A DNA stretch of 57,221 nt, from sequence record PV189400.1; one strand, 5' to 3'. The position numbers were made by a program. Source of the DNA: Escherichia phage vB_EcoP_phi296. Below are positions 39,001 to 42,000 of the stretch, one piece after another (the stretch's first letter is position 1; each line of letters opens with the position of its first letter).

Positions 39001-42000
39001 GATTTTGTCAATCTCACCTCAAATAATTCAGTGCTGTGTTTATTCTGTTGTTTATGCCAAAAATAAAGGCCGCCATCAGGCAGCCTTGTTGTTCAGTTTA
39101 CCAAGTTCTCTGGCAATCATTGCCGTCGTTCGTATTGCCCATTTATCGACATATTTCCCATCTTCCATTACAGGAAACATTTCTTCAGGCTTAACCATGC
39201 ATTCCGATTGCAGCTTGCATCCATTGCATCGCTTGAATTGTCCACACCATTGATTTTTATCAATAGTCGTAGTCATACGGATAGTCCTGGTATTGTTCCA
39301 TCACATCCTGAGGATGCTCTTCGAACTCTTCAAATTCTTCTTCCATACATCACCTCAAATAAGTGGTTTGCTGCCAAAACAATGAACCATCCGGAAATTC
39401 CAGATAGTTCATAATTCACTCTTCAATACTTCCAACTTACTAATCGCCGATAGATATCCGCGCTGATAGGGCATCATCATTCCTTCGAGCTTGCCACTTC
39501 TTAACTCCTCCCTGAGCAATTGTATTGCTTGATCAATAACCTCTGCCTTAGCGTCCTTTATGGCTTGCTTGCGGGGCTTTGCTTTCTGCTTTGGCAGATT
39601 TCTCAAGCATGATGGAATGTATGTCTGATTCATCACTTACCTCGCTGTCAGTTGTTTTGATTTCCGGTATCCTGCCGCGTAAATGGCTACGTTTGGCAGG
39701 CAAATACTTCCACTGCGTTCATCTTCTTCCTTGCAGCAAAGGCTTCCGAGTGATGCTGCTTTATCTGCTCTGACGCAACCAGAGAGCTTTAGCGCAATTT
39801 TTCGTGCCAGTCGCTGCTCTTGCATTGCCTGTTCACGTTGAGCCTGTCTGCGTGCTCTGCGGCGATTTCTGGCGTTATCGTCAGCCAGATATGTAATGAC
39901 TACTGTCATGTTGACCTCCGATGATTGACTTTGGCGGTGACGCGCCGGGTGCTTATCTTCCGGTTGCCGTCGTGCAGCTGCACTTCACGTCACCCCAAAG
40001 CCAACTACTCTTTGGTTCCCGCATTTCGGCGGGACAATCCCATCAATGTTAAAGAGCCTGCCAATCTGTTCCGTTTGGCTTCCAGCGCCCTGCTGATGGC
40101 TAAAGAATACTGTAGGTATTTTATTGTGTAAATACCCAAGGTATTTATTTTTGGTGAAATAATGATAAGCAAATGAATACAAAGGATATTTATTTTTTCG
40201 GTGTCTGCTTGTTCAGTGCTTTTTATGCGGGATATGTGAAGTGGATCCCGATAGCTATTGCTGCCGGGATTATAGGTTAGTCAGCGAAGGTTAAGACGAG
40301 AATTACCTTAATGATGTCTGCTACAACAGACACGGCCATAGATAAACCAAAGACGATCCAAGCCACAGTGATGTCTTCACTACCATCGTATAGAGTTCCG
40401 TAATCACTGGTGTAAGGCGTAAATGTCGCGCCTTGATACAATAGGTATAAGCTTGATCCATAGAGGATAAATGCAGATATCCCTTGTATTGCTATGATCA
40501 CCAGAATCATGAAACGAGCTGATCTATGCGCCCAAGCCTGGCTTATTTTTTCTGATAGAGATTTCGCAATAAAAGCATGCGCTAAGCCGTAAATTGTCGA
40601 GATTGCCAACATCCCAAAAAAGCTTGCTATAGCGGTTCCAACCATAATCGCCCCTTGCGTGATCAAACCAGCCTTAGTTTTGTCTCAATTGCAACGCCTA
40701 TAATCTTGCAGTTTCCATTGATTGGCACGAGAGGCCATGCAGGATTAAGTCCCTTGAGGTATTTATTTCCGCCGTCGATTATCAGCTTCTTGAATGTTGC
40801 TTCGTTAGAGTCAGAAAGTTTTGCTATGACCAAGCTGCCGTTGATCGCCTCCCTTCCGGTATCGAAAAGAACGAATGTTCCCTCTGGAATGCTTAACCCA
40901 ACCGGTGCCGTCATTGAATCACCTTCCACTTTAAGCCAGAACGCATTACCTTGAATATGCGCGTCAGACTCAAGCCAAACATCTATGTCTTTAATGGTGT
41001 ATGGTTCGCATGCTTCACACCACGAGCCAGCCTGGATACTGCTTAACACCGGATACCTCTTTCCTGCTCTGTATTCCCCTGCATACCTTACGTTGGCATC
41101 GCTCTTAAGGCTTTCTGCCTGTTCTGCAACCTTGGCAGCAATTGACTGGCTAAAATCAGCAATTGAGACTTGCAACAAACGTGCAAAACCAGATGCGACC
41201 TCAACGTTTAGCGCGTTTCTGCCATTAAGATAATGCCCTACCGCTCCTTGGGTGATACCCAGTTCATCAGCGATTGAGTATTGGGTTATTCCCAATTCTT
41301 TCTTTTTTGACTCATACAAAGCCTTAAGCCGCTTAGCGTCTTCGAGCTGTTCTGTCGTCAGTGATTTTTTATTTTCCATAGCTTAATTCTAATAGCTAAG
41401 GTACTTAAACTAAAAATACCCTGAGTATTGATTGCTTTGAATACCTGTAGTATTCTTTGTTCATGGTTAATAACGGAGAGTGCATATGATTCGAATGACA
41501 CTTGCCGATTACGCCAAAATCCATGGACAGGCTAAAGCAGCCAGTGACTTTGGTGTAATCCAGTGCGCTATCAGCAAGGCCATTCTGGCAGGCCGTAACA
41601 TCATGGTTACGGTAAAGCCTGATGGCAGTGTGATTGGAGAGGAAGTTCGTCCTTTCCCAAGCAACAAGAAAAACAAATAGTAACACCGCTCTTTAACAGT
41701 CATGGTCATCATTCCCGCCGAAATGCGGGAATACAACGCGCATAATTTGATGCGCATAACTTCTTATTTGTTAAGGAAATACTTACATATGCAACTTACA
41801 AGTACTCGCAAGAAAGCGAATGCAATTACAAGCAACATCCTGAATCGAATTGCTGTACGTGGTCAGCGAAAGGTTGCCGACGCGTTAGGGATTAATGAAT
41901 CGCAAATTTCGCGATGGAAAGATAGCTTCATCCCCAAAATGGGAATGCTTCTGGCTGTTCTTGAATGGGGTGTTGAAGACGAGGAGTTGGCGGAACTGGC

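Follow-up and report, generated by a model that had tools for sequence, protein, structure and literature searches.

Operator palindromes of an HK620-type immunity region in Escherichia phage vB_EcoP_phi296

Escherichia phage vB_EcoP_phi296 (sequence record PV189400.1; 57,221 bp, analyzed over its whole length and hereafter the window) carries short palindromes of the form AATAC-N5-GTATT on either side of its cI gene. A reading made from the sequence alone had proposed that these belong to one family of 15-bp sites serving both the left (OL) and the right (OR) operator regions. Operators determine the phages that an element excludes and the repressors able to silence it. Are these palindromes the operators of a phage switch and, if so, of which immunity type? 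The evidence argues that they are the OL and OR operators of an HK620-type immunity region forming a lambda-type bistable switch (probability about 0.9). The operators are already known, having been predicted for HK620 in 2001, and the finding is correct but ordinary, with nothing new in the design of the switch. What is added here is a proposed correction to the OL3 and tIMM annotations of HK620, an operator family that spans many enterobacterial genera and co-varies at its first position, and a T-rich element at a fixed place beside OL in heteroimmune phages including lambda.

Counts of the motif in the window were compared with dinucleotide-preserving shuffles (n=100). The exact 15-mer (AATACNNNNNGTATT) occurs four times, at 40106-40120, 40131-40145, 41415-41429 and 41440-41454, against a shuffle expectation of 0.05 and a maximum of 1, and all four copies fall at the positions annotated as OL1, OL2, OR2 and OR1. 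The single copy with one mismatch lies at OL (40176-40190, AATACAAAGGATATT), and a copy with two mismatches (41391-41405, AATAGCTAAGGTACT) occupies the OR3 position, 24 bp from the OR2 site. A weight matrix was built solely from the four exact sites, taken as 17-mers, and used to rank all 17-mers of the window; OL2 has the top score, 40175-40191 ranks fifth and 41390-41406 seventh. All six sites of the sequence-only reading are present, and as 17-mers they are as follows.

40105-40121: OL1, GAATACTGTAGGTATTT, an exact core covering the -10 of PL; annotated as OL1 in HK620 and kept in relatives
40130-40146: OL2, AAATACCCAAGGTATTT, an exact core that in the 17-bp frame overlaps the PL -35 by 3 bp; annotated as OL2 in HK620
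40175-40191: candidate OL3, GAATACAAAGGATATTT, 45 bp centre to centre from OL2, with 28 bp between edges
41390-41406: OR3, TAATAGCTAAGGTACTT, the weakest site, overlapping the PRM -10 by 2 bp; annotated as OR3 in HK620
41414-41430: OR2, AAATACCCTGAGTATTG, an exact core abutting the PRM -35 and overlapping the PR -35; annotated as OR2 in HK620 and conserved
41439-41455: OR1, GAATACCTGTAGTATTC, an exact core covering the PR -10; annotated as OR1 in HK620

Measured between centres, the OR sites are 24 and 25 bp apart and the OL sites 25 and then 45 bp. The regular spacing of 24-25 bp first reported for the sites therefore stands at OR and between OL1 and OL2, and fails for the third OL site.

Might such palindromes simply be chance matches in A+T-rich intergenic DNA, with no regulatory role? 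Copies with two mismatches do occur at close to the chance rate over the whole window (32 observed, 18.5 expected), with the consequence that the OR3 call depends on position and conservation and not on the match alone; the half-site of OR3 proximal to cI is highly conserved in relatives. Chance is nevertheless effectively refuted by the four exact copies, by their placement on promoter hexamers at lambda-like offsets and by their recurrence in at least nine genera, and its probability is negligible. Matrix matches at 39279-39295, 49802-49818, 40434 and 40475 were rejected as operators and are probably chance, being unclustered and away from promoters; the first two are isolated operator-like 17-mers (GGATAGTCCTGGTATTG and GTATATTTTAAGTATTG) of approximately 10 bits each. 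The operators escaped a repeat search seeded at 6 nt, as their arms are only 5-6 nt long.

The sites lie on three promoters, two of which (PR and PRM) read as the sequence-only reading had described them.

40097-40132, minus strand: PL, with -35 TTTACA at 40132-40127, a 17-bp spacer and -10 TATTCT at 40109-40104; coincides with the pL of HK620
41428-41456, plus strand: PR, with -35 TTGATT at 41428-41433, a 17-bp spacer and -10 TATTCT at 41451-41456; lies inside the pR of HK620
41386-41414, minus strand: candidate PRM, read from the sequence, with -35 TTTAGT at 41414-41409, a 17-bp spacer and -10 TAGAAT at 41391-41386

PL is the sole promoter-like match in a consensus scan (9/12). Among related OR regions the conserved columns of PR are TTGA and TATT(C/A)T, and the PRM -10 (attcta, attgta or atttta) is kept together with its distance to the cI ATG, a distance that matches lambda. 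In the window the end of this -10 lies 6 nt from the ATG (41379), implying that the cI mRNA is leaderless, as in lambda.

The two regulators are encoded by divergent genes separated by 106 bp, an arrangement that fits the CI/Cro switch of lambdoid phages.

40663-41379, minus strand: cI repressor, 238 aa, with Pfam domains HTH_3 and Peptidase_S24
41486-41680, plus strand: cro, 64 aa, matching lambda Cro 1cop (expectation value, E, 5e-19) and Pfam Cro PF09048 (E 4e-26)

The cI product matches the lambda repressor 3bdn over its full length (E 3e-52). Its helix 3, in the helix-turn-helix N-terminal domain, reads Q44-GAVGHYLN, and in the S24 autocleavage C-terminal domain A117-G118, S155 and K198 align with lambda A111-G112, S149 and K192, within the motifs QAG, GDSMTAP and FKKL. 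The repressor thus has the helix-turn-helix domain and the Ala-Gly/Ser/Lys autocleavage residues of a lambdoid CI, and the operators have the expected layout, with three OR palindromes and an OL set overlapping PR, PRM and PL. The recognition helix of Cro reads Q26-CAISKAIL.

To which immunity type does this region belong? The interval 39900-41700 is 100% identical in Escherichia phage vB_EcoP_phi367 and in prophages of E. coli O111:H8, 99.3-99.7% identical in HK620, mEpX2, HK630, HF4s and HZ41 (99.3% over 1801 bp for HK620), and 99.0% identical in HK140; at least 80% of this 1.8-kb query is covered in 146 E. coli genomes. mEpX2, HK140 and Stx2_EH1904 encode the same cI N-terminal domain (100% identity), a domain that had been singled out for comparison with repressors of known immunity, and the Cro proteins of HK620 and mEpX2 likewise match that of the window at 100%. 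Loss of the palindromes from phages with the same cI would have counted against operators; the opposite is seen, all four exact sites being retained at the same positions in HK620 and phi367. In cI, Cro and operators the window therefore has the sequence features of HK620 immunity. The HK620 record (AF335538) annotates its operators as 17 bp (Clark, Inwood, Cloutier and Dhillon 2001, J Mol Biol 311:657). Converted to window coordinates (HK620 locus coordinate + 38399), its annotations are as follows.

40097-40132: pL
40105-40121: OL1
40130-40146: OL2
40152-40168: OL3
40165-40195: tIMM
41390-41406: OR3
41414-41430: OR2
41428-41463: pR
41439-41455: OR1

Five of the six palindromes first noticed in the window are the cores of these annotated operators; the remaining one, at 40175-40191, is not the OL3 of that record.

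More diverged relatives show which bases have been kept. They comprise Hafnia phage Pocitis76 (L003), Serratia phage OS31 (L004, MT843276) and 20 prophage loci, numbered in the same series, from Serratia, Yersinia, Pectobacterium, Pantoea, Tatumella, Providencia, Proteus, Morganella and one assembly labelled Chryseobacterium. Compared with the window, identity over the cI N-terminal domain is 63-84% for the prophage loci and 79% for Pocitis76, and identity of Cro is 81% for OS31. Every relative examined encodes the helix-3 motif QG(A/G)VGHY(L/M/I)NGR, and nearly all carry AATAC-N5-GTATT-like sites as a triplet upstream of cI and a second cluster downstream; L017 and L025 have degenerate copies only. 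The OR1 17-mer is present unchanged in Pocitis76. The motif search proposed earlier for the window and related phages thus finds the sites clustered at OL and OR and retained. When 22 distinct OR regions are aligned, information concentrates in the half-sites and in promoter hexamers (PRM -10, PR -35 and PR -10); the half-sites and their spacing are kept, and the central 3-5 bases of each site vary, as do the spacers. Judged from this alignment, the column pattern is that expected for protein-binding sites and not for hairpins or chance matches.

Two phage records among these relatives call for comment. The annotated cI start of OS31 (L004 2392-2440) precedes the conserved MESKKS start by 16 codons, and is probably mis-called, since it would put OR2 and OR3 inside coding sequence. 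The Pocitis76 cI (L003 2001-2726) joins an N-terminal domain of HK620 type to a C-terminal domain visibly nearer that of lambda than that of the window, which points to a recombination joint between the two domains.

How does the specificity compare with that of lambda? The lambda-type operator TATCACCGNCGGTGATA has no match in the window at up to three mismatches. Specificity of the lambda type (imm-lambda) is not indicated by the proteins either, the cI N-terminal domain being 53% identical to that of lambda, and the immunity region has no DNA match to that of lambda. The consensus half-site is R1-A2-A3-T4-A5-C6-Y7, with N at the eighth position, the lambda half-site being T-A-T-C-A-C-C. The two agree in A2, A5, C6 and the pyrimidine of position 7 and differ at positions 1, 3 and 4. 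In the lambda cI-operator complex Q44 reads A2, S45 the base pair at position 4 and N55 position 6. The window cI keeps Q44 and N55 and differs from lambda in helix 3 by S45G, G46A, A49H and L50Y, changes that appear to agree with those in the half-site bases; Cro differs by S28C and N31S. A published “evolutionary code” for Cro assigns A2 to Gln at H1, A5 to Ala at H3 and C6 to Lys at H6 (PMC6649833). Under this code the helix QCAISK (QSAINK in lambda) of the window Cro, a PF09048 member, predicts the observed A2, A5 and C6; the changes at half-site positions 3 and 4 go together with changes at H2 (Ser to Cys) and H5 (Asn to Ser). The specificity would depart from lambda mainly at positions 3 and 4 (and 1), matching the changes in the recognition helices.

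Position 1 lies outside the 15-mer and co-varies with the Cro helix among the relatives: 80% of half-sites accompanied by QCAISK have A or G there, and 87% of those accompanied by QTAISK have T or C. This suggests sub-specificities inside one operator family. The window, L003, L004, L006, L007 and L009-L011 have I-QCAISK with a purine at this position, and the loci L008, L012, L013 and L018 have H-QTAISK with T or C; the helix-2 region of cI shifts in parallel, reading TQY..ELG in one case and TQQ..ELD in the other. Because of the co-variation of position 1, the functional unit is most likely 17 bp, as in lambda. In this frame OR3, OR2 and OR1 are offset from the cI ATG by 11, 35 and 60 bp, against 11, 34 and 58 bp in lambda, the spacing in the window being 1 bp longer. 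The proposal that these operators differ from the 17-bp operators of lambda therefore holds for specificity; the offsets and the co-variation make 15 versus 17 bp a matter of description and not of mechanism.

The fit to the Cro code and the co-variation at position 1 bear directly on Cro alone, which raises the question of whether the sites are bound by only one regulator, or by a host factor, and not by cI and Cro both. The cI motif QG(A/G)VGHY(L/M/I)NGR is found in every locus that carries AATAC sites, and cI differs from lambda exactly where the half-site does (S45G, G46A and A49H) while keeping Q44 and N55. In the lambda, 434, P22 and N15 systems, moreover, cI and Cro as a rule share their operators (PMC6649833). 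Binding by a single regulator or a host factor is consequently very improbable, and a common set of sites for cI and Cro is preferred.

The least regular member of this set is the third OL site. In HK620 the annotated OL3 is the 17-mer TGGTGAAATAATGATAA (40152-40168), which contains no half-site and gives no matrix score; it was rejected as the third operator for want of a half-site match. The site at 40175-40191 is probably the functional OL3. A site at exactly +45 is also found in Serratia phage OS31, L006, L009, L010 and L011. Elsewhere OL3 lies at +29 (Pocitis76 and L007) or +21 (L008, L012 and L018, with a very weak site at +21 in L013), and across L003, L004, L006-L013 and L018 the +21, +29 and +45 sites are mutually exclusive. 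The corresponding lambda site is at +20.

The right arm of the +45 palindrome overlaps a conserved T-rich element, in which lambda and the relatives have GAATT, one base from the half-site GTATT.

40189-40196, plus strand: T-rich element, TTTATTTT, within ATTTATTTTTT (40188-40198), approximately -92 to -99 from the PL start

Counting from the first base of OL2, this element is at +58/+59 not only in the window but also in lambda (record 35673-35683) and 13 heteroimmune relatives, and TTTATTTT has only three plus-strand occurrences in the whole window. In lambda an OL-proximal “distant UP element” stimulates PL and, via looping, PRM (PMC3708714; PMC8053113), and the T-rich element may be the same element by analogy.

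It is therefore possible, though the less favored view, that OL has two operators, or that the third is 40152-40168, and that the palindrome at 40175-40191 is incidental to the T-rich element or belongs to tIMM, the terminator of the cI operon. Besides the overlap, HK620 annotates tIMM across 40165-40195, and neighbouring lambda operators are 20-25 bp apart and not 45 bp. Set against this are the lack of half-site and score at the annotated OL3 and the matrix rank of the +45 site, fifth among all 17-mers of the 57 kb. Both of its arms are retained at +45 in five divergent relatives, and loci with a +21 or +29 site lack the +45 palindrome. As a tIMM hairpin the palindrome was rejected: its stem is A+T-rich, the terminator scan gave no match to it and found no G+C hairpin at the annotated tIMM, and the changes in its arms among relatives are not compensatory, so that sequence and not pairing has been conserved. 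There is also a precedent for a distant OL3 in HK022, where 53 bp separate OL2 from OL3, the gap shows loop-like DNase sensitivity and CI loops OL to OR (PMC8053113); the window shares the wide gap (28 bp edge to edge) and differs from HK022 in repressor specificity and operator sequence. With 40175-40191 preferred as OL3, the HK620 annotations of OL3 and tIMM (AF335538 7888-7931; window 40152-40195) look misplaced, the record placing tIMM over the OL3 site favored here and OL3 elsewhere.

How would such a switch operate? Extended by homology with lambda to binding, cooperativity, PRM activation and looping, the sequences, statistics, homologies, conservation and geometry described above suggest the following. 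Dimers of cI and of Cro would bind one common set of odd-centred 17-bp palindromes with the half-site R-A-A-T-A-C-Y-N. Cooperative binding of cI at the perfect-core O1 and O2 sites, over the -10 and -35 of PR and PL, would turn lytic transcription off, and cI on OR2, abutting the weak -35 of PRM, would activate the leaderless cI transcript. At high cI concentration the weakest site, OR3, over the PRM -10, could mediate autorepression, and Cro would shut PRM off. The S24 domain implies RecA-dependent induction, with RecA-stimulated self-cleavage at A117-G118 leading to prophage induction. Lambda offers close parallels: its cI and Cro are homologous to those of the window, its OR is tripartite, and its lytic promoters carry O1 on the -10 and O2 on the -35. 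Collinearity extends to the OL frame: the PL leaders of both phages contain GCGNCCTGCTGATG, and ATTTATTTTTT is equally far from OL2 in the two. The two differ in the distance between OL and OR, which is 2.4 kb in lambda and approximately 1.33 kb in the window.

Several points weigh against this reading. PR fits the sigma-70 consensus at only 8/12, under the scan threshold, and OR3 taken by itself is a two-mismatch copy, a class near chance genome-wide. The third OL site is oddly spaced, and the element that its right arm overlaps is conserved even in lambda. In lambda cI the three residues known to contact sigma are E34, D38 and G43. Asp38 alone is conserved in the window, E34 being replaced by Tyr and G43 by Thr, which makes PRM activation uncertain and the least secure step of the scheme. 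Literature searches, whose coverage did not include the HK620 genome paper, returned no footprinting, electrophoretic mobility shift assay or genetic operator mapping for HK620 or mEpX2 immunity.

Taken across the relatives, the operators and helices could be drawn into a broader picture, which is offered tentatively and is doubtful as a whole. In its first part, AATAC-type operators and QGAVGHYLN-type helices would define a specificity superfamily across the Enterobacterales, with sub-specificities set through position 1 together with Cro H0/H2 (and helix-2 residues of cI). In its second part, OL3 would have moved among +21, +29 and +45 while the T-rich, UP-like element stayed fixed 59 bp from OL2 in lambda and in all members. 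If this were true, delivery of an OL-proximal UP element to PRM by an OL-OR loop would be ancestral in lambdoid switches and not a peculiarity of lambda. A more practical use of the operators lies in typing the immunity groups of Stx-like prophages in E. coli O111 and related strains.

The immunity region stands in a genome of mixed origin. Lambda 30347-33522 (orf61 through exo, bet, gam, kil and cIII) matches window 35234-38408 at 96.9% identity and the ral region matches at 97%, and lambda N-cI-cro-cII-O-P has no nucleotide match in the window. The suggestion of a mosaic with lambda-type recombination genes is borne out by these matches; to call those genes lambda-identical overstated the case. 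The structural genes (window 1-25000) are 100% identical in phi419 and 99.9% identical in Stx2-converting phage 86. HK620 is a P22-like Lederbergvirus, whereas the window has a structural module of Stx-phage type (Sepvirinae) and lambda-like red genes. On nucleotide matches the window is clearly a three-way mosaic, its structural module being that of the Sepvirinae, its red genes lambda-like and its immunity of HK620 type.

The genes that adjoin the switch are the following.

39637-39909, minus strand: N antiterminator, the first gene of the PL operon (Pfam N_peptide, E 5e-15); annotated as N in HK620
40277-40645, minus strand: hkaS-like gene encoding a hydrophobic product of 122 aa, downstream of cI in the position of lambda rexAB; annotated as hkaS in HK620
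41789-42067, plus strand: cII (Pfam Phage_CII, E 1e-42); annotated as cII in HK620

Where lambda has rexAB, the window thus has one small membrane-protein gene. Its product gave only a sub-threshold match against Pfam, with no family assignment, and may be a candidate for an exclusion function expressed from the prophage. The Hafnia phage record annotates a tRNA-Gly (L003 3423-3502) in its PL leader, at the expected place of nutL between OL and N.

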